From: Hormiphora californensis
Taxonomy: Eukaryota; Animalia; Ctenophora
Assembly: GCA_020137815.1 (NCBI GenBank)
Contig: CM035352.1
Coordinates: forward strand, 5,394,001 to 5,458,000
Reading direction: 5' to 3'
Length of the DNA: 64,000 nt
Positions 10,292 through 41,383 of the stretch are shown piece after piece. How positions within the stretch are numbered: position 1 is the first letter of the stretch; the number at the start of each line of letters is the position of its first letter. Under the pieces are notes generated by a model. The model had not been told where the DNA came from. It searched no databases and worked only from the letters and a program-made list of their open reading frames with translations. Both the position numbers and the translations under genes were made by a program.

Positions 10292-11023
10292 TTAAAATCT
10301 GGGTGCCTTCCATTGCTAACAATTCATCGATTTTGGCGGTCGAGACGGGTCAGGGCTGTTGTTAGGGTCGGGTTAGGGTTTCGTTTGGGGTTATCGGTTA
10401 GGGCTATCGATTCTCTATCAGATACCGTTTAGTTTACAGTTTACTCAAATCGGCCATGTGGTTCCGCGGCTATAGCCGTTTGAAAAAAGTCAGTCTAAGT
10501 GGTTGTAGGTGTACTTTTTTAGCAGCGCGCACCTGTAAACACGCTGCAAGGCAACCCAGATTATAATCGAGCCCTTTGGCGAGTGCCGACAAACGGTTTT
10601 GTAGGGTTAGGGCTAAAGTAGGGTTAGGGTTAGGGTTGGGGTTAGGCCTTGACATTTCCTACCAGATAAACTTTGAATGAGCCAAAACGGTTGAGTGGTT
10701 TGGACTTTGGGCCAAACCGTTTGGCGGTTAGAGCCATTTTAGTGAATCAACATTTTTGGCAGCGCACACCACCAAACACCCAAATTGTAACGGCGCCCAA
10801 TTTTCGCCCTCAAGTTCATCTAAAAAAATGGGGGGGGTCCAGCCCTAAAAAAGCCAATGGTACCCTGATTTTGGCCGATGGCTTGGCTTTTTTAGGGCTG
10901 GACCCCCCCCCCCCCCAAAAAATTCTCGCTACAGACGTTTTCGATTTTCAGCCCTTTGATAGTTTTGAGTGATGAGTCGTTACCTCTACCTTCCTTCCCT
11001 TTCTTAGGAAAGTTAATACTGCA

Positions 11024-11581
11024 ATGGCGACCCAATCGACATATAAAAGCTGCAGAGAGCTGTTCGAAGACGCCAAATTTAGGAAAGAGCAGGGAAATCA
11101 ATGTTTTAAATCGGGTGACTCGAAGAAAGCTAAAAAGCACTATTTGTACGCACTAATGATAACACGGTCCATTTCATCGCGAGATACAGTTGGTCGTTCA
11201 ATGGCCTTCTTCAGTGGCTCGATACAGTCCGGTCTTGTTTACGATGAGCCTCAGTCCTTCAAGGAGGATGTTGAATGTCTTGAGTCAAACTGCCAGAAAA
11301 ACTTGTCACTCATCTTTGTCAATGAGAAGAACTGGGACAAATCTCTGGAGTACAGCAAACTTGCTCTGGAGAGAAATGAACATGATCCCAAATCACTGTA
11401 TCGACACTCTTTGTCAGCCCTAAATCTCGGCTTATTAGACGCAGCTGAGTCTTGTTGTCACAAACTATTAGAGTTAGAAGCAGACAACAAATTGTATTTA
11501 AAACTTTTAAGGGACATTCAGAATCAAAATGCGGCGAACAAGAATAGAGAGAAACAGATGTACAGTAGAATGTTTCAATAA
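11024..11581 (+). CDS. TPR protein, TTC9/FKBP-type TPR domain, single coding exon
   Basis: AKFRKEQGNQCFKSG, NLSLIFVNEKNWDKSLEY, KSLYR and C-terminal EKQMYSRMF typical of TTC9-like proteins. Confidence 0.85.
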   Translation: MATQSTYKSCRELFEDAKFRKEQGNQCFKSGDSKKAKKHYLYALMITRSISSRDTVGRSMAFFSGSIQSGLVYDEPQSFKEDVECLESNCQKNLSLIFVNEKNWDKSLEYSKLALERNEHDPKSLYRHSLSALNLGLLDAAESCCHKLLELEADNKLYLKLLRDIQNQNAANKNREKQMYSRMFQ

Positions 11582-11660
11582 CTCTTTGTAACATATTTTG
11601 TTAATATTTTGATGATATTTTATGTTTTATAACCCCATTTTCCCCATTTAGTAGCGCCCC

Positions 11661-12065
11661 ATGAGCGATACATCGACTCCAGTAATACAGAATATAGCAA
11701 AAGCAAACCTGGCCGACCTCGAGAAGCTGAAGGCACTGTTGGCGAGTGCCGGCGCTAACACCGCCAACCTCACCAACAACATCTTACTTCAGAACCCACA
11801 GATCCTTCAACAGGCCCAGGCCGTTCAACAACAGGCACAGCAGGCAGCAGCTGCAAAGAATAATGTGAAATCAAGGGGCGGGGTCAGTGAGCAGAGGTAC
11901 GCAGAATTATTGGCTGTTATTGAGGAGCTGACGAAGGATATCAAACCTACATATGCAGGGAACAGAATGGCTGCTGAGCGGTTAAAGAAGGGCATTGCAC
12001 TCGCCAGGACCCTGGCAAGGGATTGTCGTGTTGAGGCTGAGAGGATTGCACTGTCCAACAACTAG
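11661..12065 (+). CDS. CDK2AP1: CDK2-associated protein (DOC-1; NuRD subunit)
   Basis: C-terminal [44 protein letters not shown] matches the CDK2AP1/2 signature. Confidence 0.9.
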
Positions 12066-12102
12066 AGGGGGGATAGCATCATCTCAACTTGTGGTGACCA
12101 GG

Positions 12103-12460
12103 TGGTTACAGGTGTTACCATGGTTACTGGTGTTAGGGTGGTGTTACCATGGTTACATGTGCTACCATGGTTACTGGTGTTACCATGGCTACTGGTGTTA
12201 CCATGGTTACTGGTGTTACCATGGTTACTGGTTTTACCATGGTTACTGGTGTTACCATGGTTACTGGTGTTACCATGGTTACTGGTGTTACCATGGTTAC
12301 TGGTGTTACCATGGTTACTGGTGTTACCATGGTTACTGGTGTTACCATGGTTACTGGTGTTACCATGGTTACTGGTGTTACCATGGTTACTGGTGTTACC
12401 AGGTTACTGGTGTTACCATGGTTACTGGTGTTACCATGGTTACTGGTGTCACCATGGTTA
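12103..12460. repeat. 18-bp minisatellite (GGTGTTACCATGGTTACT), ~19 copies
   Basis: Direct tandem array. Confidence 0.95.
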
Positions 12461-12870
12461 CAGGAATTTCAAGATGTATGTCGAATTATACGTGTACAAA
12501 ATGCAATGGACAGAGAGTCAGAAAAATTATAAACTGTTTATTTCACATACCTAAGAATATATATAACAATTAGCCCTTCATATGAACACTTTATTTGTTG
12601 CTCCTTTATTCAAACTACACACAGTTAATTATGTATAACATTTTTACTGATATATTAACTGCTCTTTAAATATTTGTCTTTACCTTTCCCTCTGCCCTCA
12701 GGGGTCTACTAAGTTACACTTATCCTCCCAACGGCCAACCCACAATGTATAGTTCAACTCCCCCTCACGGCTCACGCTCCCAACCCACAATGTATAGTTC
12801 AACTCCTCTCTCCCCAATCCCCATACCCCATTGATTTAGAACTCCTCTCTATAGGATTCCCAATGGTAAC

Positions 12871-13761
12871 ATGAGTACAGCAGCAGTACATCTGAGGTGT
12901 TGGGATGTGGGACGGCTGACAGGTACCATCAGAACCTTTGGAACAGTTAGCAACAGTGATGGACCACCTGACTTGGATTTCAAAACTCGGCAACGGAAAT
13001 TCATGGAACTAGCTCGTAGAGAAACTGTAAGTTTTACAAAACATGAGTGTCCGTGACTATAAACATGATGTCGTCTTGAAAGTTTAGACAGTTTCCATAT
13101 CTTGATAAGATATCTTTCGTGAAAGCATCCAACTACAGTCGGACCCCGATTTAGTGGCCTCCGATTTAGTGGCACCCCGATTTAGTGGCAGGATTTTCCC
13201 CCCGATATAGGAAATTAACATTATTTAACCCCGATTTAGTGGCAGGATTTTTTCCCCTGAGGATGCCACAAAATCGGAGTCCGACTGTATCTATAAAATC
13301 ACCTGGTGTTTTCAGACGTCAAAGAAGGAAGAAGCTACGTTTGATTGGAAGAGGTTAGCTAGCTACGTGAAGAGTGAGGGAAGTAGGGGCCAGCAGGATG
13401 CAGTGAGAGATATTTTACATCTCACACAACAAATGGTAAATATCTCCCGGTCCGCAAAACCTCCTACTCACTCTATTGCTCGTAGTTTTTTATCTCCGCA
13501 TATATATTGTAAAAGCAGTAGATTTTATTACCCCTGCTGCAGTACACCACTCATCAGTCACCCGCCCACATAGGTTGGTGATGGTAGTGACATTATCACG
13601 ACAACTTTGGAGGAGCTGTTCCCACTATTCGCACAATTCGATCAGCTGGAGTTCAGAGAGATCTTCAAAGTAAAGGATAAGATCGGGGCTGTTGATGAAA
13701 CTGTCTTGAAAAAGGTAGTTAGTTTTGCTGAAAACTGTTTGATTCCTTACATCCCCCTTTA

Positions 13762-13833
<72 letters not shown>

Positions 13834-16800
13834 ATCCATCTCTCTTCTTCTCCTCTCCAGTTCCTGTTACCAGCCTGACACTCAGGTCTTCTCTTACTAC
13901 ACCAGAGTTACAGAGAGGAAACATCCCTGAGGTATTTCAGAACGTAGCAGTCGAAGCTGGAGAAGGTAGGGTGGGAGTATAGGGGGGTCCGCCAGGGGGT
14001 TGGTTCAAAAGTAAGTTAGTCAAAACGTGGCAATGATAGATCCTCGTCCAGTATCTTGTTCTTGTGTTTCAAGGCCTGGCCTGGCCTTGGGAGGGGGACT
14101 CTTGGATGTATGTCACTAGGCTTATACTAATTCTGTATGTTTAATAAAACAGCTACTGGGGCCTGGTATATATTCAGTTTCCTCCTCTTAGGACAAACCA
14201 CTCTCTCTCCCTCTCGGCTCTCTCCACCCTCTCTCGCACACTCCATCGCTGCTCGCCTTTCTCCGACTCTGCTTCTCTCTCTCTCGATCTACTCTCCTCT
14301 CTCTCTTCTCTCTCTCTCTCTCTCCTCTGGTTTGTGCCGTACTGCCAGGGTACCAGTGCGGGAGCTGCTGCAGTAGTAGAACAGCAAGGTAAGGGTGGGG
14401 GCCAGGGGGGCAGAAAAATCATTCGGCCGGTTTTAAAAGGATGCTCATTTAAAGGGTTTAAATCAACCCCAATATTTTTTGGGTTTTGGACGTTACCCCA
14501 CGATCTCCCTGTATTTTAGTGTTCACGGTGTTATCCTTCCCAGGTTCGTATTGGTGAGATGTATAAAGGAGAGGAGTCAGACCCTGCAATGCCCCGGGAG
14601 GAACTTGTCAGTGCTATTCATACTCACATATCATCGCCGGCAAACAACGAGAGTATTCAGGACTCGGTAAGAACAAGGAACCAAGTAAACAGCCAATCAG
14701 AAACCTTTTTTTTTTTCCGGTTGGTTATAGCCAAAGGGGGGGGGTTTTTCCGTTCGGTCGGGTTTTTTGGGAAAAAATGCAAAAATTTTTAAAAAAACCC
14801 CGCAATTAAAATTTTAAAAAAATACCTCTTGGCTTTGGGTTTTAAATCCTCTCCCATTTTTTTTTTCGGCTGAAAATTGCCCCGCATTTTCCCAAAAAAC
14901 CCCTTTTTTTCCCCATAAACACTGCTTGGCAAGTAAAGGTTTTTAAACTACCTACTCCTCCAGTTATTTGGTTTACTCGGCTACGAATCATTCGACCTCA
15001 TCGCCACTATCCTTCAAAATCGTGCTGTTATTCGTGCCCCCAGTGGGTTCGATGTCTTCGTAGAGGAGGAGTTAAGAGCACCACCACCACCCCACTTTAA
15101 ACAGGAGAGGGGTCCCTCAGTTACACACCAGGTTGGTGGGTAGTATAATACTAGAGAGGTAACAGGGTTGTAAATACCACCAAAGGGTGATGCTGGCAGA
15201 TACAATTTGTGATGTGCTCATATTGTAATCTGTTGAGGGACATGTAAATTGTAAGGATAGTGTGGTAAAAACTCACACAACTCTCCTGTCCCCGTTTCTC
15301 TCTCTCGATGTGTGTGTTGTGTTAACTGTAAGGAGGGTGTATGTGTAAAAAGGGGGGAAGTGCTCTTTTCCGTGTGTCTGACACCAGTGTGTCCATCTCT
15401 CTTTACAATAATCGACTCACTTGAAAATATATGTGGAATACCTTACTCTCGTTAATTAAGCTCGCATATTTCAAGAAACTTTTAAATAAGAAACTTTTTT
15501 TCTAGGAAACTACAGGTGTAAGCAATCCAAAAACAAAAAGAATTTCTTCTTTATCAAGAAACTAAACAAGTTAGGGGTGTTCTATTTTGTTGTGGTGTCT
15601 CTGAATTGTGTGATCTACATTAATAATAATAATAACTAAGTTTATATTCCGCCCATATCCGACAGGGACAGAGCAGCGAAACTGCTGCTGTCACTGAAGG
15701 ATGATCTGAACGGTTAATATACTGGTAAGACCTCGCCAACTTATCCCTAATAGAACAAAAAATAATAAAGAAAAATTACACCGGCTCACATTACTATCGG
15801 CTCACATAACTATCGGTGACTGATTACATAACAGACTGAGTTAGAGTCCTGGAACTCTCAAAAAATGATATAAAAGTCCGTATATTGGAACACAGAAAAA
15901 CACTCGTGCTATGAAAAACCCCAATTTATGCTTCACACTTCTGCTCGCCACGAGCTTAAATACAGAAAAATAATTAAAAACGGGTACCAGCTAGAGCACA
16001 TACCTCAGCAAAGTTTCTTATAAAAAAGTTTCTTACTAAAGCGTTTCTTAAAAAACGAGAGTAAGGTATATGCGAGTGGTATTCTTGACAAGACTATACG
16101 GTGCATTTGTTAAACAGGAAGAAGATAGGGGAGAAAGGGAGATAACTTTACAGCAGGAACCGACCGGACCAAGTAAACAACCAATCAGAGCTCGTTATTT
16201 AGGTCACGTGACTGGATATCAGCCAATCAGGGACCAGTATTTCCTGATTCGGTCGGTTCCTGCTTTACAGATAACCAGAAACGTGTGGAAACAGTTGGGA
16301 TGTTGTCTGGATAAATGTATTTTAATTAAAGTCGGAAGTCCCTCTGTTTGAAGTCCCTCTGGTTAACAGTGATGCAACATTAGCACTCCTTATCCCTAGG
16401 TAAATATCCTAACGGAGCGAGAGAAGATCTGGATGAAACAGATACGAAAAGAGGAAAGAAGGTTGAAGAAGGAGGCGAATAGTAACAATGGTCAAAATAG
16501 GCATCTATTTAATCCCGAGTTATTGCGAGAACAAAGGTACATCTCCCCTATATCTCTCAGATACCCTGGGGTGGGGAGCAGCTACCCACACTCTCTTGTT
16601 AACGAGAACTGTATTTACTGATCGAGTCTTCTAATTCTTCGGTGAAACAGAGGGTGTAGCCAGACAAACTATTGAGGTGTATTAATATCAAATGTTACAG
16701 GGAGTACGCCCTAATGACGGCCAACATGGTACCAGCCCTGCAGCCCCGTACACCAGTTAACCCTGAGTTACCCTTCGTGTTTGATACTCGGATGGATATC

Positions 16801-19800
16801 AAACAGACAGCTGCCTATATTCTAGGTAGGGACTATAATACCCAGTCTGGAGGGGGGGGGGTAGTTCTTTATTGCTTGTTGGCAGCGAGAAACAAAATGT
16901 TATTTGATATCTCTGACACAAGAGAAACAACCATCCTCCGTCTCATCAGGTGTAAAGGTGACCCTTCCCAGCGATGCGTTTCACGTATCAAAACCTGGTC
17001 ACGAGGAACACACCATTCCAGCCACCAGTGTAAACCCACCTGAGTGGACTGATGAGTATAAGAACATATCAGATCTGGATCAAATCGGACAAGTGGCATT
17101 CAAGGGTGTAAAACGGGTAGGTTATCTTTCTCAAACCAAAACCAAATCTCTATCTGTGGGCTCTCTATCCATCTTTCTATCTATCTTTTTTCTCTCGTCC
17201 CTCGACTACCTCTACTCACTTGGTTACGAAGTTACCCCTTGCCAGCACGCGCGAAGGTCGCCCGGCGACCTGAGCTAGGGGTTACAGAAGCGGTTTGATT
17301 CACTTCAAAAATTAATAGCTCCTCAACCACTCAATGAAAATGCACCAAATTTTGGTATTCCCCACCAAATTGTCTGACAATTACAATTCTGTACTCATAT
17401 TTGAAAAATTATCTCCGGAACCTTGGTTTTAAGATCAGTTTTAGGTGTTAATGATGAAATTTTTTTTTGAAAAAGTAGGTCAGGTATGCTTAACATCATA
17501 TTAAAGATCGTGGCAAAGTTTGAAGTTTCTATCTTCAAAGGTCTGGCCATCAAAATTAAAAAGGTCTTGAAGTTGGACCATTTGTACAAAATATGTTGTA
17601 ACTCAACTTCTACTTTGCCAAATTAAACCTGGTTTGAAACACTGAACTGCTAATCTATCCCTCGGAATACGGACGAAGTTTGAAACCGCCAGCTCTATTG
17701 ACCGCTCTGCAATACTTGTTTGTGTCAAAGAAATCAGGAAAGTAACAAGATTTGGTCTCGGTGTCGACCTGTGCGCGGCTCAGACCCCTAAGCTAGAACT
17801 ATGTAGTGTAGACTACAACTTTTCAGTGCTCAGTATAACGTTTTGAGCGCGTTATGAAAATAGGGCAAGCGGTTCTGATACCTCTAAACAGAGTGTGAGG
17901 TGTCTTCGATACCAATCTACTCACTCAATCACCTTCTTTGTTTCCTCTTGTGTAAATTCTGATGATTGTGACAGTGACACGCGGAATAGGAGCAGCAACA
18001 CAGTAGTGCCTGCGCGCACTGAACATTCTGTAACGCGCTAAGTCGACACTCAATGTAAAGTACATCAAGTTACGACTCTTGGGGACACTACTCCTCTCTT
18101 TTTCCCTACACACAGAAATCACACTAATCAATCACACACCTATACACCCATAATTACCATCAATATTTCAGTTAAACCGAATCCAAAGTATTGTGTTTGA
18201 CACCGCCTACGACTCCAATGAAAACCTTCTGATATGTGCACCTACGGGGGCGGGTAAAACCAATGTGGCCCTTCTCACCGTCTGCAAGCTAATCCGGAAC
18301 AACGTGGAGAATGGTGTCGTACAGAGGAACAAGTTCAAGGTTAGATCATCAGATGGAATTGTTAAAATAGAGAGGGGGGTTTAGATCATCATCTTAATCT
18401 GCGCTTTGGTGGGAAATAAATAATATATTATAAAATGGAATACTAATTTTAGGTGCTGGCATATTTTGTCATATTGCACTGTACACTTAGTGTTTGATAC
18501 ATGTGCCACATGCAAACACACCATGTACCACAATCACACAAACACCTTTCAGATTGTATACGTCACTCCCATGAAAGCCCTGGCTGCGGAAATGACTAAA
18601 ACATTCAGCAAGAAGCTTTCTGCTCTGGGGATCACTGTCAAGGAGTTAACTGGGGACATGCAGCTTACAAAACAGGAGATTAGTCAGACTCAGATGTTGG
18701 TAGTTACACCAGAGAAATGGGATGTTGTAACTAGAAAGAGTACTGGGGATACTGGACTTAGTCAACTTGTCCGGTTACTTATAATAGGTAACCTCGACCA
18801 AAACGCGGAGTTTTTACGTCAGCCGACCCGAAACCGGATTAAATTTTGCCACCCGCTGGTCTCAGGGCCTCAAAATATGTCAAAATATGTCTGAATTGTC
18901 ATTTGGGGTCATTTAGACCTTTTAATTGCATGTAATTACCCTTTAATTACATGTAATTACATTTTAATTACATGTAATTACTTCCAATTACATTCCAATT
19001 ACTTCAGCACCTCGAGAGCTTTCGAACGCACCCTAGAACACCTTTCTACTCCTTCTAATTACCGAGTTCTGTATACCCCTTATTTTGACTGTTTTTCGCG
19101 TCCTACCCCTTATAGGTTTGGGTATGGCCATCGCCACACCCCCTATACGTCGCGGGACCTCGAGACCTTTCCAACGAGCCATAGAACACCTCTCTACTAC
19201 TTCAGGGGGCTTCAAAACTTTCACTCTAAAAATATCTATGGTTTATGGTTTATGGTTTACCTCGACCAAAACGCGGAGTTTTTACGTCAGCCGACCCGAA
19301 ACCGGATTAAATTTTGCCACCCGCTGGTCTCAGGGCCTCCAAATATGTCAAAATATGTCTGAATTGTCATTTGGGGTCATTTAGACCTTGTAATTACATG
19401 TAATTACCCTTTAATTACATGTAATTACATTTTAATTACATGTAATTACTTCCAATTACATTCCAATTACTTCAGCACCTCAAGAGCTTTCGAACGCACC
19501 CTAGAACACCTTTCTACTCCTTCTAATTGCCGAGTTCTGTATACCCCTTATTTTGACTGTTTTTCGCGTCCTACCCCTTATAGGTTTGGGTATGGCCATC
19601 GCCACACCCCCTATACGTCGCGGGACCTCGAGACCTTTCCAACGAGCCATAGAACACCTCTCTACTACTTCAGGGGGCTTCAAAACTTTCACTCTAAAAA
19701 TATCTATGGTTATGGTTTTATGGTTTATGGTTTTATGGTTTTTTTTTCATCTGGTATTAAGGGCCTGTCGGCTCGGCCCCGTTGTTTTAGTTTTAGGGGG

Positions 19801-22800
19801 GATGTTTTAGGGGGGATGGGTTGAGTTTGGGTTATATTCGGGTCGGGGGGCCTTGCCAGGCCCCGAATGGTTTATGGTTTATGGTTTTTTTTTCATCTGG
19901 TATTAAGGGCCTGTCGGCTCGGCCCCGTTGTTTTAGTTTTAGGGGGGATGTTTTAGGGGGGATGGGTTGAGTTTGGGTTATATTCGGGTCGGGGGGCCTT
20001 GCCAGGCCCCGAATGGGTGTTAGATCACTTAAATCAAAGATTCACACCTCTTTCTCGAAATACATGGCCTACCATCCCCTGCCTAGCCTGCTAACACCTG
20101 TCTCCCAACCCCTGCCCCTAAATACCACCACTAACAATCCTCTCACTCTAGACGAGGTGCATCTACTGCACGAAGACAGGGGTTCTGTAATTGAGACCCT
20201 GGTCGCCAGGACTCTCCGACAAGTGGAGAGTAGTCAGCAGATGTGCCGTATTGTTGGTCTCTCAGCCACTCTACCCAATTATATCGATGTAGCTACTTTC
20301 CTCAAGGTTGGTTGGTTAGTCCATCTCTGTTCTTTATCTTATCTCATATTTTCTTGAGCTTGATTGCACCAATAATAACGGGTGACAACTAAAAATTGTT
20401 ACTAATTTAAAACAGCTGTAGAATTTTTCCCTTTTGAGATACAGCTTCGGGCCAGTGATAGAACGATTTTTCAGACAATTTTGAATCATGATAACATAAC
20501 GGCGATGACTAAAACGTTCATTCTCATAGCGATATCGGATCATTTCCTCTTGCCCCACCAAAGCATATAGTACGGAGATTTGAAATTTCTATGTTATCAG
20601 AAACGACCTTCCCGATGAGATAGAATTCTCATAATTGGAAGTCTGGTTGTTCATGCCATAACCAACATAACTGCCAAGTTTGAAGATTTTGGCTGATTAG
20701 GAAGTTGGGTTTCCACGGTCATTAATGTTTCGAGAGATGTCGAAATGGCGATTTCTCAAATTACCTGTAAACTACGCTTTGTTACAGAAGATTCTGATCA
20801 GGAATTGAGATTTATGAAGTTTGAAGCAAAGTTAATTTCGTTCAAAATTGTCTGAAAAATCATTCTATCACTGTCCCGAAGCTGTATTTCGACTAGAACA
20901 GGCGCTAGAGGTGCTAGAAAAACGTGTAGATTTCACGGACTATATACTTTGGTGGGGCAAGAGGAAATGATCCGATATCGCTATGAGAATGAACGTTTTA
21001 GTCATCGCCGTTATGTTTTTCTGATTCAAAATTGTCTGAAAAATCGTTCTATCACTGGCCCGAAGCTGTATCTCAAAAGGGAAAAATTCTACAGCTGTTT
21101 TAAATTAGTAACAATTTTTAGTTGTCACCCGTTACAAGTTTCATCCCTCACTACTACCCCAGGTTAACGTGTACAAGGGGTTGTTTTTCTTTGACGGCAG
21201 GTTCCGTCCCGTGCCTCTGGAGCAGACCTTTGTAGGCGTAAAGGGAACAAACAAGTTCAAAACAAGGGAGAATATGGATCAGGTGTGTTATGAGAAAGTT
21301 CTGGATAGCATAAAGAAGGGTAACCAGGTGCTGGTGTTTGTTCACTCCCGGAATGGGACCCTCAAGACAGCGGAGAAGCTGAGGGAGATAGCACAGACTG
21401 AGGACACCTTAGATCTCTTCACCCCTGTAGAACATCCCAAATACCAAGAGTGAGTGTTTATAATGGGGGAGGGTGCTCTTGTTTTCTGTCCTGCGTACTA
21501 GGCATTACGGAGGTGGTGGGGAGGTGGGTGATACTTATTACTTCTAGATTTCCAAATAACAGATCCCCTCCTCTCCTCTCTCAGTGGTCTAAAGAAGTTG
21601 ACCCGGTCCTCCCAAAAGAAGCTGAACTACCTCTACAGAGATGGGTTCAGTATTCACCACGCTGGTCTACCACGGGTTGATAGGAATGTGGTGGAACAAC
21701 TATTTAATGATGGTCTAATTAAGGTGTTGGTGTGTACTGCCACACTGGCATGGGGTGTCAACCTGCCTGCACACACTGTTATTATAAAGGGTATGTTATT
21801 GTTGTTGTTGTTGTCATAGAGATCAGATAGCATCTTCCCTCATAAAGTGGACATGTTTAGGGTTGATCCCCCCCCCCCCCCCCGGTTGATCCCATGATAT
21901 TTTAGGAACGGAGTACTATGATGCCAGTAAGGGAGAGTTTGTTGACATTGGAATCCTGGATGTCTTCCAGATATTCGGGCGTGCTGGTCGTCCCCAGTTT
22001 GATACCTCTGGACATGGCATCATCATTACTGCACAGGACAAACTGCACAAGTACCTGATGCTGGTAACCCAGCAACATCCCATCGAATCACAGTTCACTA
22101 AATCAATGGAGGATAACCTGAACGCTGAAATCTGTCTGGGGACGGTGAGTTGTGTGTGTGTTGGTAGTGATTAGTGAACCCCACAGGTCAGACTCTCTTA
22201 TTCATTATGGTAGAGCTGTTTACTCACTGGTCTATTTGAGAAATAAAATACCAAGTATTTTGGATGAATTGGGGGGGACGACATGTTAATTGTTAATAAA
22301 TCACCTCTTTTTTTCGATTTTGTTAATTAACGTTAATTAACAAAATTAACAAAGTTAACAAATCAGCAAAGACTGTTCTTATTGGTTGATAATACGACTT
22401 TAACTGGTTTAATTTTATAGTTTAATGACTTTTCTAACACATATATACCCAAACAAGGCCTCTTCCGATAACCAAAGTCCGACATACATGTTTTTTGGCT
22501 CAAAATCGATAAAAATCCAAAAGTTACAAATATTTCAATTTAGCGTATAAAATCTCACTTTAACGTGATTTTTTCATTGATAATCGATTCTTTGAACGAA
22601 AGAAGATGATGTACAACGTTTCTGTCGGAAAAAGAAACAAAATATTTCCAAAATCAATTTTTGGTCAAAAATTGAAAATTTGCTTCGCTACAAATCCTTG
22701 TGTTTTTTTTAGAAAAATTGATTTTTGGGATATTTTTGTTTTATGGTAAATTCATGAGTCTTATTTAGTTTTTAGGGTTAAAAAAAGTGGATTAGGGTCA

Positions 22801-29038: not shown

Positions 29039-29179
29039 ATGTCTGACGAGTTCGCTATTGAGACCACTGATGCCGGTGCAGCAAAGTACACTCCCGTCCA
29101 GACTTCAACCATGAAGAAAGGCAGTCACATCCTGATCAAGGGACGACCGTGCAAGGTAATCTTTCTTTCTCGCTCTCTC

Positions 29180-29252
<73 letters not shown>

Positions 29253-29820: not shown

Positions 29821-30118
29821 TATGGGATCTTCTTTTTTTTTGGGAGAGACGTGCCATCTTCTTCTCCCAGGGAGAGAAAGAGAGTGTATAACGCTGCTGG
29901 CTCGAGCATCTTATCTTTCTCTCTATTTTTTTCCATCTTCCCCCTTTCTTTTGACCGACCCTGTTTTAGTGGTTTTTAGTGTTTGAATTTACACATGTGA
30001 TCTTGTTTTTGTTTCCCCGACCCCGGTTAGATTTTCCAAGTCCCCCCAGTTGTCCAGCTATCAATTATAGTGAACCTAACTCCACCTTCCTCTCAATCCA
30101 CTCTCTCTACATAGCAAC

Positions 30119-32543
30119 ATGTTAGAACGTCCCGAGGCAGTGTACTATGTGGAGCAAAAGGGTAAAATAGGAACAGTGGAAGTGGCTCTAAAACCCAACA
30201 CAGAGACCCCATTTTCTCTTCAGCTCACTTCTTCGTGTCTTCAGGTATGAACTGCTGGACCCCAAACTGCTGAGAGATATTCACCATGTAGTTACCATTG
30301 TCACAGTTACCGTGTAGTTACCATTGCATTTGGTTACCATTGCCCTAGCTCCCCTCCCCCCCCCCCCCCCCCCAGATTGCAGATGCCCCGGTTCCACTGT
30401 GTGCCAACACCAGAATGAGATATGGAGGTATGGACGACCCCACAGTGGCTGATGGGGTCATTGGACTTAAAATACCCACCGGTAAATAATTTTCCAGCGT
30501 TAATTAAAAGTTAACTAAGAGTTAATTACCAATTAGTTACAGTAAGTGATAATACCCCTCCTTAGATCCGATAATGGAGGTAAACAATGGAAAGGGAGGT
30601 GAGGGACCGACAATTAAAAACATTCAGTGCAACAGATGCTCAAGGAAACTAAATTGCAAGTAAATAGGGTAAACCGGGGCAATTCGAACAACCGGGGCAA
30701 TTCGAACATAGTACTGCCCGTCTCTCACCTAGTTAAGCTATCATAATGACGTCATCCTATCTCCAGAAGAAAACTGCTCGTTCGAGCCTGCCCGTTACCA
30801 CTAAATAGGCTCTAGATCCGGTTTAAGTTGGTCGATTTCCGATTTGAAAAAACCAGCTGAAAGCTAATAATATCAGCTTTCAGATGGTATAAAAATTATT
30901 TAAATATTCGCATGTTTTCATTCCAAATTCTGGTAAATTAATATTACCGGGGCAATTCGAACAACCGGGGCAATTCGAACATGGGCAATTTGGTTAACAC
31001 ACCGGGGCAATTTGGTTAACTCCCGGGCCAATGATGTGCAGTTCTTTGTACCACGTGATCACGCGTGATACCGGGGCAATTCGAACAAGAACGACCAGCG
31101 TGTAGATTGCGTGTAGATTACATTGTTCGAATTGCCCCCACCTCTAACAACACCAGGCGGGAATCTTCTTCTGGTGTTGTGAGGACGTTCACGTGACTCC
31201 CACGTGACGAAATAAAGCACTCCTATTGGTGTTGTCCGAATTGCCCCGGTACCATTTTTTCCGACCAAAATTTTTAAATTAGTTATTTAGTTAAGTAAAT
31301 GATGGTCCCTAGAGTTGAAATTTATCTTATTTGAAAGATAAAATAATGAACTTTAATCCTATATAATTTTTTTCATTGTATCTTTTTTTAAATGGGAGTG
31401 AGAACCGATTAAGTAAAAAGTTAACCATTTTGCCCCGGTTTACCCTACTAAAGCCCCTTTCTTTTGCTCTCTCCCCTAATATTCCCCCTTCTGGGACAGT
31501 AATGCTTCTTTGTTTTCCCATCATTCCACCATCCACCCTCCTAGGAAGTTTACAAGAGTCCTGCCCCTTCCCTCCGCTGCCTGGTATGAGATGACTGACA
31601 CCCTACTGTGTCACGGCAGCCATAAGACTATTGTTAACGGGCTCTTCCCTAGACCAGGTAAAATACACCCCACTCTCACCTTGGTGACAATCACCATTTA
31701 GTTATTCTTTGTATCTCTTTCTCATATTTGCCTTGCTCGACCCTGTCTCACAAAACAATTACAAAACATGTGTCACATCCCCAAATTGGGAGTTTACTCC
31801 TTCACACACCCCCACTCTCTTGTCTCATATAAGACCGTCCTCTTCGCACCGGGCGGGGTGCGTGATGTACAGTCATATTGCCTGACAACCACTCTCCAGG
31901 TGATTGTTTGGTTGGTGAACAGGAGATCTGGGTGGCCTGGGACACCCTAACAAAACAACACGTGTATATCGGTGAAACACGTGACATGGAGCACAGATCA
32001 CGTGTTACTGCCTCTCTACACTGCATCAGGTGTAGAAACATCCTGGGCAGGGTGGTGTACAGTGGAGATAAAGTAGACTGGGCGATAGTGTGGAAACATA
32101 GTATAGCAGGACATGGAGCCCCACTCTACCATATCGAGAGTTATGTGGCCAGGGAGCTGCTAGATGCTAGTACGAGACATGTCAGTTTTAGATTTATAAT
32201 CCTACCCCGGGATGTTAACAATTCTAACACGTTCCGGGGTATTAGGTTGTGGATGATGGGGGGTGATCTAACCATTGCTACATCTCTATCTGAACAACTC
32301 AGCTGGGCATTAGGCCAGATCGGTGGGAAGATTAGTGACAATACCAAGGCAATGAAGGTCCTGTATACTAAACACTGTGAACAGAGCACTGTCCAGGGGA
32401 TATGGACGGATGCTGATGTGATATCCCTGCCGTTAGATCTGTGTTTGAATCTGTGGTTAGTGTTACAGTTGTCTTCTCTAACCCTGCCCCCTAGTAAGAG
32501 ATATGCCCAGAACTGCCGAGTAGGGTACATTAGATATGTGTGA
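30119..32543 (+). CDS. UBE3D: E3 ubiquitin-protein ligase E3D-like (HECT_2); exons ~30119-30244, 30376-30481, 30566-30659, 31545-31657, 31900-32543
   Basis: CxxC pairs (CNRC, CIRC), LPLPSAAWYEM..LLCH, PRPGDCLVG and C-terminal LPPSKR..CRVGYIR resemble the UBE3D/Ipa1 family. Confidence 0.8.
30667..31445. mobile_element. MITE with TA TSD and internal CCGGGGCAATTCGAACA repeats
   Basis: TA-GGGTAAACCGGGGCAA...TTGCCCCGGTTTACCC-TA. Confidence 0.88.
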
Positions 32544-32661
32544 AGAATTGTGTTGAGAAAAACAAAATATAAATTGAGTGAACATTTATCTGTCTAGATC
32601 AGAGATAGTTTGATTGTATATAAGTGTGGAAAAAAGGAAGGAAATCTTTGTGTGTATTTGA

Positions 32662-33489
32662 GGGGGGGGGGACATGTTAATTGTTAATAAATCACCTCTT
32701 TTTTCCGATTTTGTTAATTAACGTTCATTAACAAAATTAACAAAATTAACAAATGCTAAAATATTGATGTTATCGGTTGATAATACGACTTTAACTGATT
32801 TAATTTTGTAGTTTAATAACTTATCTAACGTTTGTATACCCATGCAAGACCTCCTCCGATAACATAACTCCAACATACAAGTTTTTTTGGCTCCAAATCG
32901 ATCAAAATTTAAAGAGTACGAATATTTCAATTTAGCGTGTAAAATTTCACTTGCATGTAATTTTTTCATTGATAATCCATTCTTCAGACGAAAGAAAGTG
33001 ATGTACAACGTTTCTGTTTGAAAAATTCGAAAAAATTCCCAAAATTGCTTTTTTTGGTCAAAAATTGAAAATTTGCTTCGCTACAAATCCTTGTGTTTTT
33101 TTTAGAAAAAATTATTTTTGGGATATTTTTCGATTGAAGGTAAATTTATGAGTCTTATTAAGTTGGAAAATGCGGATTAGTATCATTTGAGCTCAATTGC
33201 GGTTCAGGTTGGCTAGTTTTTGTTCGAATTTACAAAATGGAACAAATCGTTGTGGGAAGGCTGTAGTAGACGGCTTGGGGGTATGCAGATCATGCAGAAG
33301 AAACATCTTTGTTCGCAGAACAATATGTAGCAAGTTTAATACCAAAAAACCACGTGCTAAAAGGACTTTAGATGGTATAAATGGCATTTGTTAATGTTTG
33401 TTAACTTTTGTTAATTATGTTAATAAATCACCTGTTTTTTCGATGTTAATATTAACAAAGTTAACAAAATTAACTTCCCCCCCCCCCCC
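32662..33489. mobile_element. TIR element with oligo-G/C termini and 8-bp TSD, copy 2
   Basis: TSD GTATTTGA on both sides; diverged homologue of 22271-23094. Confidence 0.88.
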
Positions 33490-33662
33490 GTATTTGACTA
33501 ACATGATATTTGACTTTTATAAACACGAGTTTTTCTGATAGATCTAGTAACCATAGTTACATGAGCTGCTTCTGATAGATCTAGTAACCCCCCCCCCCAG
33601 TAACCATGGTTACATGAGCTGCATCCTCTTCTCAGTTCTCACCCTCCCTCTCTATAATAGCA

Positions 33663-34959
33663 ATGTCCATGATACCATCTCTCAAGACAATCAAGGGGAT
33701 TTGTATACTAGATAACGATGGAAAGAGGGTGGTATCCAAGTACTACGATACCACTGACGACACTTTTGCAACAGTAAAAGATCAAAAAGCATTTGAAGGA
33801 AAGGTGTTTAAAGCTACGGAAAAGGCAAATTCAGAGATCGTTGCGATCAATAACTATACTGTGGTGTACAGGTAATGATTCACTTTACAGATCTAAGTTA
33901 GATGATCTAACTCTGGCCCATTTTATCCGAACCCTTTATACCGTGTTACAGTACCCAATATATCCATTCTCTCAGGTCCAATGTTGACTTATTTTTCTAC
34001 GTGTTTGGGGACAGTAGAGAGAATGAGTTAATGCTGTTGTCAGTACTAAATGCTCTATACGATAGTATTAGTATGATCTTGCGGAAAAACGTGGAAAAGA
34101 GGGCCATTTTCGAGAACATGGATAGGTAACTAGATAGGATGTGTTATACCTGCGAGACCCTTCCTTGCTCCTTCCTCCAGTATAGGGGGTCATTGATTCC
34201 TCTCGTGTATATTGTTGCTATCTTATATCAACCTCACTCTCTCCCCAGTGTATTGTTGATATGTGACGAGGTGGCTGATAGGGGGATATTATTGGAATGC
34301 GATGCCACTAACATAGTCAATAGAGTACACGTCAGAACTGAAGATATACCACTCAGTGAACAGACTGTCAGTCAGGTAATGCAGTGCTGTTAATTTAGTA
34401 TGCTGGGAAACATCAAGAGAGAGAATGAGTTAAATTCTTTCTCGCGGTACTACAGCATTTGGGTCTCTACCGCATTTGGGTCTCTCCCCACTATCTCTAC
34501 CGCATTTGGGTCTCTCCCCTCTACCGCATGACCTCTTTTCAGGTATCTTACGATATCCTGAAAAGCTTCAATTGGCTCAGCCAATCTTGAGAGAGAGAGA
34601 AAGCGTCGTGCGAGAGAGCGAGGTAATCATGTTGTGAGTGTGCACTATATTTCTAGTAGACCATGTGTCATGTAGCAACTCTACTATGTATTTAACTGTA
34701 CACTACCTAAAGTTATCAACTCCGCCGAAGCATACTACTATATAACTTACTTACCAGCTGTGATACGTGTGTCTGTGCGATTTCTGCATCTCTCAGCATG
34801 CCCCATTAAATGTCTAACAAATCATTGAAACTCTATAAACACATGTGTTATGTTCTTTGAAATTCTAAAAATGTACATCTTCCACACAACTTGACATGTC
34901 ATTTGTTGCAGGTGTTCCAGTCTGCGAAGGAGCAACTCAAGTGGAGCTTGCTACGCTAG
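33663..34959 (+). CDS. COPZ1: Coatomer subunit zeta; exons 33663-33871, 33976-34125, 34249-34375, 34912-34959
   Basis: [55 protein letters not shown]. Confidence 0.95.
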
Positions 34960-35172
34960 CTACCCCCACTGTGTGTCCCTCTCTCAATGTATATCAAATA
35001 TTCCTAACAAACCGCTGAGAGACTCTCCCCCTCCCTGCTCTCTTGTAAAGTGGACATAACCCCCCCCCCCCTACAATATATAAATTTGTTTTGTGTGATT
35101 TGTGCTATTATATCTCTGTGTGTTCCCCCATCGGCGACTAAATATGTGTATAATGTCTTTTCTTTATTATTA

Positions 35173-35897
35173 GGGTAGAAAGGGGTAAAATGGCACACGG
35201 GGTAAAATGGCACATGTATGGGGTAAAATGGTCCTAGTTATTACATGTAGTCACGTGACTTTTTCTCCAGCGGAGACCTGCTCGTTCTGTTCCGAATTTT
35301 TGCTTTAAAACTGCTGTAATTTCTGTTTGAGTTGGCCGATTTTAATTTTGCAAAAACTGCCAGTTAGGGTTTTTATCCTTCTAAAACTTGGTATAAAAAT
35401 TTTTCAAAAAACCCACTATTAAGTTGATTAAATTGTCAAATTAGTCAAACTGGGGTAAAATGGTTCACCCTCGCTGGGGTAAAATGGTTCACCCTGGGAC
35501 CAATGAAATCGAGCCTCCAATACCACGTGATACCAACTGGGGTAAAATGGTCCAGCACACTGGGGTAAAATGGTCCAGCAGAACAGAAATTACTGAAGAT
35601 AACATGGACCATTTTACCCCAGTGCTCTAACAACACCAGGCACGTGATAAAAATCGAGCAATGCTATTGGCTGGACCATTTTACCCCAGTGCAAAATTTC
35701 CAAAAAAAGCCCTACCAAACTTTTTGAATTGATTAATTAAGCTATTAAATAAAACTTTCAGATTTTAAAATTTAGCTCGTCTGAAAGGAAAACGTTTCAT
35801 TGGATAGCCTATATAATTTTTTTTCTTCTTGCTGTATAAATTGAGTATTTTAGAACCTAAAACGTTAGAAAGTGTGCCATTTTACCCCTTTCTACCC
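35173..35897. mobile_element. MITE with TA TSD and internal GGGGTAAAATGG repeats
   Basis: TA-GGGTAGAAAGGGGTAAAATGGCAC...GTGCCATTTTACCCCTTTCTACCC-TA; same architecture as 30667-31445. Confidence 0.88.
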
Positions 35898-36005
35898 TAT
35901 AGCTATAGTTTAAATTGAATTTAATTGTTCTTTACAGTTTGTTATTTTGTGTAATTAAGTAATTAAAGCCCAATTAATTAACTTATTATCTCTTTACAGC
36001 TAGTT

Positions 36006-39000
36006 ATGAAAGAAAAAGAATATCTGGTGGTATTTGCCCATGACTTTCAGGATTTTAGGATTCCGGTAAGTGAGACAACTCCATACTACATGTACAGGGT
36101 GTCCCACTGTCTTTGCGTGACCTGTGATTTTGGGTGATGAGTGGGTTCCATTCAAATGCTCATAACTCATCGAAAAATTGGTCAAAATGGTTCTAACAAA
36201 AACCAGTGTTCTAGAGAATTGTCTGGCGAACATTTTGGTTGCAAGATTGACGTTCCAAGTCTTACCAATCGTCAGATATATCGTCCTAAAGTCAAAAATA
36301 CGTGTTCAAGAAATCAGACCGGGGTTCACGTTTTGAAAAATTCACAAATGCAAAGTTGCTCGGATCACATTACATCCCTCATAAGAGTTGTAGGAAATTG
36401 TCTGGCGGTCATTTTGGTACCCGAGTTTTTGTCCTAGCTCAATGTTTAGAGTGTCTTATGACTGTCTAAAGACGAAATTCAACCAACATTTTTGAGGGGA
36501 TCACGTGTCATCAACAAATGGGTAAAATGGTTTGAAATTTATAAGAGCTTCATTGGAATCGTCTAAGGTTCATTTTGATACCATGATTTTTTCCATAGCT
36601 CTACGTTTTAGTTGCGTTATGACTGTAGGAACATAAAAATTTTCTACGCTGAGTCTTAGTTGGTATCGGCTCACAACGCCTAATTAGGCGGCTCGGTGTC
36701 GTGTGTAATCCCATGATAATCAGCACATATCGTCTCAATTTCATCTAGACACTTGACAGGGTTGTTATGACGATTTGGCAAGGCCCCTGTTAATGTGTAG
36801 GATACGCAAGTGGTCTATCTCAACCCTATCATGCACTAAGATGTTATTCAAGCAGCAATGAGCTTCATAACAGGGCAAAATGTAATGCGATACCTGAGAC
36901 CACTTTTGTGAAAATTCCAGTTCTGACAGTCATAAGACACTCTAAACATTGAGCTAGGACAAAAACCCGGGTACCAAAATGACCGCCTGACAATTTCCTA
37001 CAACTCTTATGAGGGATGCAATGTGATCCGAGCAACTTTGCATTTGTGAATTTTTCAAAACGTGAACCCCGGTCGGATTTCATGAACACGTATTTTTGAC
37101 TTTAAGACGATATATCTGACGGTTGGTAAGACTTGGAACATCAATCTTGTACCCAAATGTTCGCCTGACAATTTTCTACAACACTGTTTTTGGTTGAGCC
37201 GTTTTGACCTATTTTTCGATGAGTTATGAGCATTTGAATGGAACCCACTCATCACCCAAAATCACAGGTCACGCAAAGACAGTGGGACACCCTGTACTAG
37301 TCATGCTCCTAGTACCTACTGTTATGTTCTAAGTTAGAACTTCTAACCCTCCTTTACATTTGTGTTTCGCGGGCGGGGCGTGCGAAACACAGTCTAGCTA
37401 GTCCCTAGTCCCTACTAGTCAGGCTCCTAGTCCCTATTTACCTCGATCGACTGTTGAAGGAGGAACATGTCAAATTCCTAGTAATCACCCTAATATTACC
37501 CACTTCCACCCCTCTTCCTATAACAGGAGCTGTTGAGTGTGTAATCACCCTAATATTACCCACTTCCACCCCTCACTCTTCCTATAATAACAGGAGCTGT
37601 TGAGTGTGTAATCACCCTAATATTACCCACTTCCACCCCTCACTCTTCCTATAACAGGAGCTGTTGAGTGTGTGTGAGATGAAGGGAGTGAAGATAGAGA
37701 TAGAAGGTGCGAGTAACCAGCATCCCTATTGTTTTATTACGGTCCAGCAGGAGAGTGATATCCACACCATTCTCAGCAGGTATTGAGAGGGGCACTGTAT
37801 AGCAGGTATTGTAATGAATATATATACCCTCTCTTGTACCCCCTCGAGAAACTTTTCAACACTACTTTAAACAAATAAATTTGAGCTGTGAGCACTGATA
37901 ATTGGTGTCATTTAATTGACATCATGAAACATATATGTTTGCCACAACCTAAAGTGTTTCAATTTGTTATATGAACGATTACACACTACTCCCCCTTCCC
38001 TCCCCTCCCAGATGTGTAATGATTCAGTTTATAGTGGAGGTATGGGAGAAGTGTACAAGTAGAAAGGAGTTATGTGCCGCCTCCTTCACTGGATACCACT
38101 CCTCCACTTCATTCAACATTCTACTACACTCTTTTGGACGGAAAGTAGCCATGGCTGATAAGATTGAGCTAATTGAACAGATAGAACACCTTCCTTTAGA
38201 GTGAGTTCAACTACCCAAATCCCACTTGTTACTCTATTTGCTATTGAAATGAGAGATTTCCTCTATCCATATCCCCTCTCCTCCAATCTTCATGCTCTCT
38301 CCATCTCCCACAGTGGAACAGTGAACTGCGTCCACCCAGACCAAGTGTACTACATCTGTGAGCGGTACGCCCCCAACACCCCCACCCCCGACATGGTTGT
38401 GTTTGGACCTCTAGTGGGGAGAAGTGATAGGAACGTGGTGGATAGGTTCGCTGTGAAGAAGCGGCTTTATATTGGACGAACCACAATGGATGCACAGTTG
38501 TCTTTTGTGATGGCTAACTTGGCAAAGGTAAGCTGAATCAGAACTGGTGGACCAATATCTTATTGGGTCCATCCCTACCTAGAACTGGTGGGCCCAATAT
38601 CTTCTGTTGTTGGGTCCATCCCTACCTAGAACTGGTGGGCCCACAGACACCCACACTACACGTGTGTTCTCGGATCACGTGACCTATGTGAGATCATGTG
38701 GCAGTACCAGAAGTCAGAACTGGTGGGCCCAATATCTTCTGATAATGGGTCCAGATCCCTACCAGTAAACCTCTGTTTTCTCCCATTGTTCCCTCTAATC
38801 TAACAACTAACTTGTCGCCATGGCAACCCCCCAGATCTAAACAACTAACTTGTCAACTCCCATCATCCCTGTTTCAGTAGACAGAGCGTGGTGAGTTTGT
38901 ATATGATCCTTTCCTGGGGACTGGATCTCTTATTATACCACCTGCCTACCACGGGGCATATGGAATGGGCTCTGATATCGACCTAAAGGCTCTTCACGGT

Positions 39001-41383
39001 TGGGGTAAGTTATTATCAGGAACCGACCGAAACAAGTAAACAACCAATCAGAACTCGTCGTTTAGGTCACGTGACTGGTTATTAGCCAATCAGGGACCAG
39101 TATTTCCTGATTCGGTCGGTTCCTGGTTATTATCAGTTTCGAGAGTCAGGTTCAAGTGTAAATTCAAGTCGCCTAACATTTCCTAAATCCCCAGGTAAAT
39201 CCACCAAAGCAACAGAAATCGAATACCAAGAAAACCAAAACATAGCGGGGAATATGGAATCGTACTCTCTTTCTAATCGATACCTGGGATGTTACAGTTC
39301 GGATTTCTCGTCGGGACTTCTCCGGGACACGCCCCTTTTTGATGTGATTCTAACAGACCCACCATACGGGATCAGAGAGGCTTCACTAAAGGTCAACAAA
39401 GACATAAAGAATTCTCAGTTCTCTTTATCAGAACAGTTCTTGGAGCTGTTAAACTTTGCTGCTACCCATCTTGTTACAGGTAACTGATTCCACCCCTTCA
39501 TGACATTATCCTTCCCCGCTACATCCCTCATCCCTTCCCCTCACTTCCCCGCCACCCCTCATCTCTCTTGGATTCAGTTTTATGTTCGGCAATCAGACAG
39601 TTTGACTTGCTGAACATGAGTACACACGGTGTCCCTTAAGAAGGTGAAACCTCGGCTAGAATAAGTTTTTTGGAGACCGGACCTAGGTTACGTATTTTTG
39701 ACCGAGGAATCCGAAAAACATAAAATTAAAATCGAAAACGTAGCGGTTTTTGCGTAAAACGGCAAAAACTGTCATTTTTCAGCGATTTTCGACTTTTTAC
39801 GCTTTCTAGAGATTTAAAAAATATTTCCTTACAAGATATGATCTTGTGCTTCTAGACTAATAAAATACAATCGATTTGCTACAAATTGGTCCCGGGTTTG
39901 TGTGATTTGGTCAAAAGCTCTCTTTACTGTGGCCCATCAAAGATGGCCACTCTGCAAATATGTATTTGGCTCCTGTGGCTGCAGATGTAAACCAAAAGAA
40001 GATTTATTACACACTAAAATTTGCGTCTTGTCAAGGCGAACAAACTGGTTTTTACGGCATTCCATTTCATGCAGGCGTTGAGGAGTTACAGCTGAAAAAC
40101 TGGTACAGTGGATTTTGGAAATACCCCTACTTCAACAAACCCTAATCCAAATAAGATTTCGAAAAATATACATCTGCATACATGAAAATGAAGCTCAGGC
40201 AAATGCCAACGTGATGCAAAAAACGGGAAGTGTCTAACTTATTTCGTTTAGAAGCTATAGCCAAAGTAAAAGTGCTTATATTTGCCTTGAAAACACCCTC
40301 TAAAAACCATACTTTTAGACAATTTCTGACAATTTAAAACAAATTCTGTCCACAGGGGGCTAAGTTGGTGCACTGGAGGTGACATTTTATTCGTATTGCA
40401 TTTTTAGACAGATTTGCTGTTTTTCAGGGCTTTTAGAGGGTGTTTTCAAGGCAAATATAAGCACTTTTACTTTGGCTATAGCTTCTAAACGAAATAAGTT
40501 AGACACTTCCCGTTTTTTGCATCACGTTGGCATTTGCCTGAGCTTCATTTTCATGTATGCAGATGTATATTTTTCGAAATCTTATTTGGATTAGGGTTTG
40601 TTGAAGTAGGGGTATTTCCAAAATCCACTGTACCAGTTTTTCAGCTGTAACTCCTCAACGCCTGCATGAAATGGAATGCCGTAAAAACCAGTTTGTTCGC
40701 CTTGACAAGACGCAAATTTTAGTGTGTAATAAATCTTCTTTTGGTTTACATCTGCAGCCACAGGAGCCAAATACATATTTGCAGAGTGGCCATCTTTGAT
40801 GGGCCACAGTAAAGAGAGCTTTTGACCAAATCACACAAACCCGGGACCAATTTGTAGCAAATCGATTGTATTTTATTAGTCTAGAAGCACAAGATCATAT
40901 CTTGTAAGGAAATATTTTTTAAATCTCTAGAAAGCGTAAAAAGTCGAAAATCGCTGAAAAATGACAGTTTTTGCCGTTTTACGCAAAAACCGCTACGTTT
41001 TCGATTTTAATTTTATGTTTTTCGGATTCCTCGGTCAAAAATACGTAACCTAGGTCCGGTCTCCAAAAAACTTATTCTAGCCGAGGTTTCACCTCCTTAA
41101 GGGACACCGTGTACAATGTACTCTCCTTTCCCTCTCCCACCCAGGTGGCCGTCTCGCATACTGGTTACCTATAATCAGGGATCTATATCAAGGTGATGTA
41201 TCGCTACCCCAGCACCCTGCCTTCCAGCTAGTATACAACTGTGAGCAGGTCTTCAGTAGAAAGAGCTCGAGGAGATTGGTAGTGATGTTGAAAACGCGAG
41301 AGAGAAATGAGGGTGAGACTAGTTTTGTTGTTGGAGATTCCGCTCACGGACAATACAGAGATTTATATTTTGCGAAGAATTGA
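36006..41383 (+). CDS. TRMT11: tRNA (guanine-10-N2)-methyltransferase; exons ~36006-36065, 37658-37779, 38012-38200, 38314-38527, 38881-39004, 39195-39479, 41145-41383
   Basis: YLVVFAHDFQDFRIPE, KKRLYIGRTTMDAQLSFVMANLA, VYDPFLGTGS, GSDID, FDVILTDPPYGIRE, GGRLAYWLP. Confidence 0.93.
36095..37294. mobile_element. Tc1/mariner-type non-autonomous element with ~370-bp TIRs
   Basis: TA-CAGGGTGTCCCAC...GTGGGACACCCTG-TA. Confidence 0.9.
37481..37670 (+). repeat. Three ~60-67 bp tandem copies spanning the TRMT11 intron1/exon2 junction
   Basis: Unit GTAATCACCCTAATATTACCCACTTCCACCCCTC..TTCCTATAACAGGAGCTGTTGAGTGT. Confidence 0.9.
39017..39125. mobile_element. 109-bp hAT-type MITE, copy 2
   Basis: Same TIRs as 16154-16262; 8-bp TSD GTTATTAT. 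A degraded third copy lies at ~14676-14762. Confidence 0.9.
39625..41111. mobile_element. Foldback element with ~680-bp near-perfect inverted arms
   Basis: CACGGTGTCCCTTAAG... is mirrored; identical ORFs at 39960-40145 (+) and 40591-40776 (-). Confidence 0.92.

Follow-up and report, generated by a model that had tools for sequence, protein, structure and literature searches.

Do ctenophores transcribe neighbouring genes as operons resolved by a spliced leader? The question is raised by a locus of Hormiphora californensis within a 64,000-nucleotide stretch of contig CM035352.1 (GenBank assembly GCA_020137815.1, positions 5,394,001 to 5,458,000 of the forward strand), hereafter the window, to which all coordinates refer. 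A first-pass annotation had described seven same-strand genes here (TTC9-like, CDK2AP1, ASCC3, eIF5A, UBE3D, COPZ and TRMT11) and proposed that they form one trans-spliced operon. Trans-splicing was shown at the COPZ acceptor (33660) in a close relative. Taken together, the evidence points to a real, conserved, trans-spliced cluster whose closest functional parallels appear to be the operons resolved by leaders in chaetognaths, tunicates and Hydra. It is probable that a polycistronic unit exists, whatever its size; whether all seven genes make up one operon and one unit is an evenly balanced call. Leader trans-splicing is widely used in ctenophores, the group placed as sister to the rest of the animals.

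Seven genes and the gaps between them

Searches against Pfam, PDB and homologous proteins, together with exon models, placed all seven genes head to tail on the plus strand of the 10990..41383 region, in agreement with the first-pass annotation, and CDK2AP1, ASCC3, eIF5A, UBE3D and COPZ kept their names. Gene 1 (11007..11581, plus strand) is intronless and encodes 185 amino acids, with an acceptor AG ending at 11007 and an ATG at 11024; its domain match was to tetratricopeptide repeats (TPR), and the TTC9-like label, used below for brevity, was not established. CDK2AP1 (11661..12065, plus) is also intronless, its 134 amino acids giving a CDK2AP match, and the protein scored 98% over the domain against the P. 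bachei model sb/3464719 and 89% against Bolinopsis XP_063677028.1. The ASCC3 helicase gene (12871..28821, plus) has 28 exons and about 6.9 kb of coding sequence, with a best PDB match at an E-value of 2e-132; 19 of the 25 testable exon junctions were in frame, and the breaks fell in error-rich stretches, so that they are best read as probable assembly indels. An out-of-frame upstream open reading frame (ORF) of three codons (12863-12874) overlaps the ASCC3 start codon. The run is completed by eIF5A (29039..29820, plus; three coding exons, 155 amino acids), UBE3D (30119..32543, plus; five exons, 360 amino acids, HECT_2 match), COPZ (33660..34959, plus; four exons, 177 amino acids, Clat_adaptor_s match) and a TRMT11-like methyltransferase gene (35999..41383, plus; seven exons, 409-410 amino acids, acceptors 35999/36003, ATG 36006). 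Open GT-AG exon models were obtained for these last four genes, and 7 of their 15 introns were confirmed as RNA joints. The product of gene 7 resembled a Mnemiopsis UPF0020 methyltransferase; we take it to be TRMT11, a name carried over from the first-pass annotation.

No further coding ORFs were found between 11,000 and 41,400 by a codon scan of both strands, which short exons could escape; its two best non-overlapping ORFs were minisatellite. No opposite-strand gene or coding ORF was found among the seven genes. Error-rich, homopolymer-inflated stretches were seen at 13861-17116, 24175-25926 and 47250-48400 and, with the ASCC3 frame breaks, suggest low consensus quality.

The stop-to-start gaps measured 79, 805, 217, 298, 1119 and 1046 bp, exactly as first annotated, and may err by a few bases where consensus quality is low; without their transposons gaps 5 and 6 came to 283 and 319 bp, close to the earlier figures of about 280 and 320 bp. 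Gap 1 as far as its tandem acceptors 11651/11654 (11582..11654, plus) leaves 70 nt between the TTC9 stop and the next acceptor with no donor between them, and the 79-bp gap is 47% T and free of donor-like sites and AATAAA. Gap 3 (28822..29038, plus, 217 bp) has no donor-like site and offers acceptors at 29001, 29017 and 29022, the first of them 179 nt from the ASCC3 stop. Gap 2 (12066..12870, plus, 805 bp) contains a minisatellite with an 18-bp unit (12103-12461) and acceptors at 12701, 12839 and 12854, and gap 4 (29821..30118, plus, 298 bp) has its acceptor at 30114. A non-autonomous DNA transposon (32662..33489, unoriented; 8-bp target-site duplication at 32654 and 33490) lies in gap 5 and a TA-flanked miniature inverted-repeat transposable element (MITE; 35171..35899, unoriented; 28-nt perfect inverted ends) in gap 6, both sitting mid-gap. 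AATAAA was absent from all six gaps outside the transposons.

Splice sites were scored with matrices trained on 41 cis acceptors and 41 donors of the window, and all splice and gap controls were drawn from these 64 kb rather than from a genome-wide background. The best acceptor within 45 nt upstream of each of the seven ATGs scored 7.4-14.9, against a median of 9.0 for cis sites; 7.4 was reached by 5.5% of 564 control ATGs on the minus strand and 6.7% of 556 on the plus strand. The best donor-like scores in gaps 1 and 3 were -0.8 and 3.1, below the weakest true donor (3.6); the 79- and 217-bp gaps thus lack a donor and, as first described, also AATAAA. When the acceptors were examined for possible partners, all seven genes had an acceptor, donors were lacking in gaps 1 and 3, donor-like sites were present in gaps 2 and 4, and the top donor-like sites of gaps 5 and 6 lay inside the transposons. 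Every acceptor AG listed previously exists, although the one assigned to ASCC3 (12854) is weak (2.9) and those at 12839 (7.4) and 12701 (14.5) are better.

Spliced leader and conserved gene order

RNA was available as assembled contigs from six of eight listed runs, aligned to two regions, 10900-12085 (5 contigs, with none from run X8) and 29270-36085 (50 contigs from four runs, with joints reported from the listed alignments); the regions were set so as to avoid the minisatellite of gap 2 and a TC repeat at the eIF5A 5' end. Such contigs cannot demonstrate a single transcript, and their depths, far higher at eIF5A than at the other genes, cannot rank genes and were not used. At COPZ, a 390-nt contig (X7) starts at 33659 with a 42-nt loose end; it differs from the window at 20 of 348 aligned letters and comes from a close relative about 94% alike. 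The last 16 letters of the loose end plus AG are identical to the 3'-terminal 18 nt of the spliced leader of H. californensis, and the junction falls exactly on acceptor 33660, one of the AGs at which the first-pass annotation had suggested searching RNA for a leader. The letters before the leader part are presumably a template-switch adapter from complementary DNA synthesis. A further contig (X1) also begins at the 33659 position, with 9 unaligned letters. The leader at COPZ does not derive from cis-splicing of a neighbouring copy, since the sole one found in the window is downstream. Both contigs that reach the 5' untranslated regions (UTRs) of TTC9 and CDK2AP1 start at predicted acceptors, 11007 and 11653, with no loose ends listed, which hints at trans-splicing there as well, and eIF5A contigs carry 130-163 loose letters before exon 2. 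On the 3' side, eIF5A UTR contigs extend to 29960-29995, which leaves 119-154 nt to the UBE3D acceptor; those of COPZ go on to at least 35119, and with the MITE discounted about 150 nt then remain before the TRMT11 acceptor. One depth-2 contig is unspliced across 30002-30168, which fits a precursor, an outron or DNA.

The leader is the one published for ctenophores, which ends in TGAG and has dispersed genomic copies (Schultz 2021, PMC8527503, main text). Two CDK2AP1 mRNA-like contigs from a distant ctenophore (L002 and L003, the latter ending in poly(A)) carry different 23-nt 5' ends that both finish in TGAG. These ends are probably leaders, since TGAG is the published leader end and the cis acceptors of the window are all CAG or TAG (42 of 42). 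No specialised downstream leader was evident, the 18 nt at COPZ matching the common leader, with variants possible given the few genes and letters involved. N-terminal extensions of homologs were considered as translated leader and rejected: that of P0050 matches unspliced genomic sequence instead, and no leader translation was recognised in the extensions of the other homologs examined. Matches of a 20-nt leader pattern to 14 viral and 3 prokaryote loci did not continue as leader and were set aside as chance.

The genomic leader copy is a 40-nt version of the leader exon (37846..37885, plus) inside a TRMT11 intron, downstream of all seven acceptors, and was the only one found in the window (a 22-nt pattern gave a single match, against none in 100 shuffles). 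Together with the CDK2AP1 similarities, it marks the DNA as that of a Pleurobrachia-type ctenophore. Relative to the published leader it lacks 4 nt near the 5' end and has one other change. It is followed by CT, not GT, with GTGAG two bases later. The absence of a direct GT donor and a fold z of -0.6 do not fit a spliced-leader RNA gene, and no Rfam match was found in the window; the copy may be a gene for that RNA that has decayed, or the 5' end of a retrocopied mRNA. With 718 genomic leader copies counted in Hormiphora (PMC8527503, main text), one per window is unremarkable.

The synteny anticipated in related species was found for six of the seven genes, ASCC3 entering only through a P. bachei model. 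In Mnemiopsis a single 1102-amino-acid model, KAL5266108.1, has parts that map in order on eIF5A, UBE3D, COPZ and TRMT11. In a lobate-type locus (L001), either DNA or RNA and used for synteny only, a TTC9 ortholog (47%) lies directly upstream of CDK2AP1 (89% alike) on the same strand, across a gap of 349 bp that is 45% T and has no AATAAA. In P. bachei, CDK2AP1 and exon 1 of ASCC3 are joined in one model, sb/3464719; that exon had no match in loci L001-L012.

Linkage over longer distances was read from 27 homologs chosen on contigs above 8 kb, with 14 contig sizes and each protein represented by its longest contig, equal size serving as a proxy for the same contig. By this measure TTC9, UBE3D and TRMT11 homologs were common to contigs of 158,780 and 370,207 bp, and those of TTC9, CDK2AP1, UBE3D and TRMT11 to one of 642,261 bp. 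TTC9, CDK2AP1 and UBE3D homologs shared a 260,742-bp contig (74% alike to Mnemiopsis at UBE3D). The Bolinopsis CDK2AP1, UBE3D and COPZ genes shared a 21,284,423-bp contig, and the fused Mnemiopsis model lies on one of 17,370,771 bp. RefSeq numbering was no guide to adjacency, the Bolinopsis UBE3D and COPZ accessions being 555 apart. The phylum keeps almost no gene order, and PMC8527503 gives four genes for the largest colinear blocks between Hormiphora and Mnemiopsis; fused models may have lowered that number. Among the junctions of the cluster, the strongest are gap 1, which is conserved and offers 70 nt without a donor, and gaps 4-6, where the order is kept in Mnemiopsis and gap 5 has the leader.

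One precursor or several

From a trans-spliced, tightly packed cluster we infer a polycistronic unit, the trans-splicing proposed by the first-pass annotation having been seen at COPZ in the relative and hinted at for TTC9 and CDK2AP1. In its fullest form, which we put forward tentatively and a little short of even confidence, this would be an old operon, at least seven genes long and preserved whole in both cydippids and lobates, with a 30-kb precursor, a common leader and no AATAAA. One promoter upstream of 11007 would give rise to a single uninterrupted precursor of about 30 kb. The common leader would be joined to the acceptor before each gene, the six other than COPZ included, releasing separate capped mRNAs, and 3' ends would form, with no AATAAA, near the trans-splice site that follows. 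With the gap DNA bound to be discarded, transposons in gaps and introns would be tolerated. Such an operon would be compatible with an additional promoter inside it, such as one ahead of eIF5A.

A number of observations weigh against a single seven-gene unit. The cluster is weakest at gap 2: the 805 bp there could hold a promoter, with TATA-like strings at 12528 and 12558, and the gap contains donor-like sites at 12102 and 12403 (scores 7.3 and 7.6). In gap 4 a donor-like site at 30026 (score 6.9) lies 88 nt before the acceptor, and pairing it with 30114 would make an 89-nt intron of ordinary size. The leader is present on at least 56% of Hormiphora long reads (PMC8527503, main text), and a lone BPI-like gene on the opposite strand also has an acceptor (8.6), so that acceptors mark trans-splicing in general, not operons, and neither they nor the leader are proof of polycistrony. 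Among the aligned contigs the leader was not seen at TTC9, UBE3D or TRMT11, leaving one acceptor of seven positive. Two coding regions were linked by none of the 5 contigs of 10900-12085 and by no listed joint of 29270-36085; TRMT11 exon 1 is uncovered and gap 1 unbridged by contigs, absences that carry no weight. In the comparisons, the KAL5266108.1 model starts with eIF5A and does not include ASCC3, for which no lobate search was made, and gap 1 of the lobate-type locus is 349 bp against 79 here. The linkage of the two halves depends on equal contig size rather than on mapped positions, and the 158,780-, 370,207- and 642,261-bp contigs resemble Mnemiopsis so closely at UBE3D (about 95%) that they do not count as independent of it. 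Eight of the 14 contig sizes carry one gene only; since only the longest contig of each protein was taken, these do not test absence.

The alternative that survives best, though we consider it rather unlikely, is two or more adjacent smaller operons, for example TTC9-CDK2AP1(-ASCC3) and eIF5A-UBE3D-COPZ-TRMT11, with their own promoters and no read-through between them. Adjacency in lobates was directly seen only as these two blocks, the fused Mnemiopsis model begins at the second of them, and gap 2 is roomy and has TATA-like strings. The mRNA of eIF5A is, moreover, in general far more abundant than that of ASCC3. However, only 179 nt separate the ASCC3 stop from the first eIF5A acceptor, and in other ctenophores the first and last genes share one contig, as short as 158,780 bp.

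Less probable still are seven compact monocistronic genes that are all trans-spliced and have outrons and short or overlapping promoters of their own. Their order would be kept because each promoter lay inside the end of the upstream gene. Trans-splicing is a genome-wide default, a lone gene carries the same type of acceptor, contigs joining two coding regions were not seen, and an outron, or DNA, would account equally well for the unspliced 30002-30168 contig. Against this, a 3' UTR, a promoter and an outron are hard to fit into the 70 nt of gap 1, the gaps lack AATAAA outside transposons, no opposite-strand gene was found among the seven, transposons stand mid-gap in two gaps, and a similar Hydra gap is described in PMC3273482 as having no promoter activity. 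It is very improbable that the acceptors serve conventional 5' UTR introns removed by cis-splicing, or that the packing is an assembly artefact: the donor-like sites 12102, 12403 and 30026 and the error-rich stretches of the assembly would suit it, but the leader joined at 33660 refutes the intron version for COPZ in the relative, gaps 1 and 3 have no donor, and the gene order recurs in independent assemblies.

Read as a leader-resolved operon, the cluster invites comparison with known systems. The operons of the chaetognath Paraspadella gotoi (PMC12460157) and of Ciona and Oikopleura (PMC7986045) are, in the passages describing them, likewise same-strand runs of unrelated housekeeping genes, with leaders on lone genes as well. 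The chaetognath set was defined with a 250-bp gap cut-off and reaches nine genes (PMC12460157); Ciona operons were predicted with up to seven genes, and the intergenic gap between annotated gene ends has a median of 1 bp in Ciona and about 31 bp in Oikopleura (PMC7986045). The gaps here are longer (79-805 bp, stop to start, and others with transposons), and one member is a 16-kb, 28-exon gene. Those sets also have genome-wide leader read counts, whereas here one acceptor has been seen with leader. The Hydra RFC140-flp operon shares a non-bilaterian host and a T-rich gap with trans-splice acceptors, but it comprises two genes, has a putative polyadenylation signal and was proven by dual reporter and promoter test (PMC3273482). 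C. elegans operons have in common with it co-directional genes, a spacing of about 100 bp and resolution by trans-splicing; they place a specialised SL2 leader on downstream genes (PMC7986045, relevant section), whereas the leader at COPZ is the common ctenophore one over 18 nt.

Operons had not been reported in ctenophores as of 2021 according to the relevant passage of PMC7986045. The words 'operon' and 'polycistronic' do not occur in the main text of Schultz 2021 (PMC8527503), the supplements of which may bear on leader or operon claims, and 'operon' does not occur in the main texts of the Hormiphora, Beroe, Mnemiopsis and chromatin-loop papers among PMC8527503, PMC12221973, PMC11184263, PMC11797021, PMC4824033 and PMC10282587. 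No ctenophore operon and no mention of this gene set was found in a literature search whose scope excluded Moroz 2014 and Derelle 2010. If the operon is real, it would be the first in a ctenophore with leader and synteny support that we found in print. Spliced-leader trans-splicing in ctenophores was reportedly described by Derelle in 2010, and the P. bachei genome paper of Moroz in 2014 is said to have predicted several hundred operons from gene spacing. The idea of ctenophore operons may therefore not be new, while the locus and its conservation may be; with distance-based Pleurobrachia predictions perhaps in print and the mechanism known from other animals, the surprise is limited.

With a named and conserved locus of seven genes, the question can be tested directly by data types already in existence: Iso-Seq exists for Hormiphora (PMC8527503, main text), and maps of trimethylated histone H3 lysine 4 (H3K4me3) and Micro-C maps exist for Mnemiopsis (PMC12221973, main text). 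Should the operon reading be true, it would account for some of the rare microsynteny of ctenophores as well as for the fused models KAL5266108.1 and sb/3464719, and many fused models in ctenophore annotations would be unrecognised operons. Fused models such as these two, of four and two genes, could be mined for candidate operons genome-wide.

Neighbouring genes and other features of the window

The same-strand run comprises nine genes, a G-protein-coupled receptor (GPCR) gene preceding the seven and a ULK/Atg1-like kinase gene following them. The rhodopsin-type GPCR gene (6073..7633, plus) has 3 coding exons and encodes 450 amino acids; a small ORF at 7229-7633, considered as a separate gene, is its last exon. 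From the GPCR stop (7633) to gene 1 there are 3.4 kb of largely repeat-derived DNA, which would be the likely place of a cluster promoter. TAGGGT-type tandem repeats (10602-10646, within 10300-10940) occur upstream of gene 1, and a 28-nt perfect inverted repeat (10830-10910) lies where such a promoter would be expected.

The kinase, which we take to be ULK/Atg1-like from a motif in its translation, follows TRMT11 with its 5' part at 42330..43530 (plus; ATG 43429) and continues to about 55100. It has a likely 5' UTR exon at 42330-42448 with a strong donor at 42449, and is a possible eighth member of the cluster. In the last intron of TRMT11, a 685-nt inverted repeat (39624-41112), 100% complementary with arms 119 nt apart, could fold back in the precursor.

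On the minus strand the ATG of an intronless BPI/LBP-like gene (56113-57513) is preceded at 8 nt by an acceptor-like site and at about 45 nt by a TATA-like box; the gene would serve as a useful monocistronic control. A long interspersed nuclear element (60545-63915, plus) retains a 997-codon open endonuclease-reverse transcriptase frame together with an upstream zinc-knuckle-like ORF piece, and looks young.

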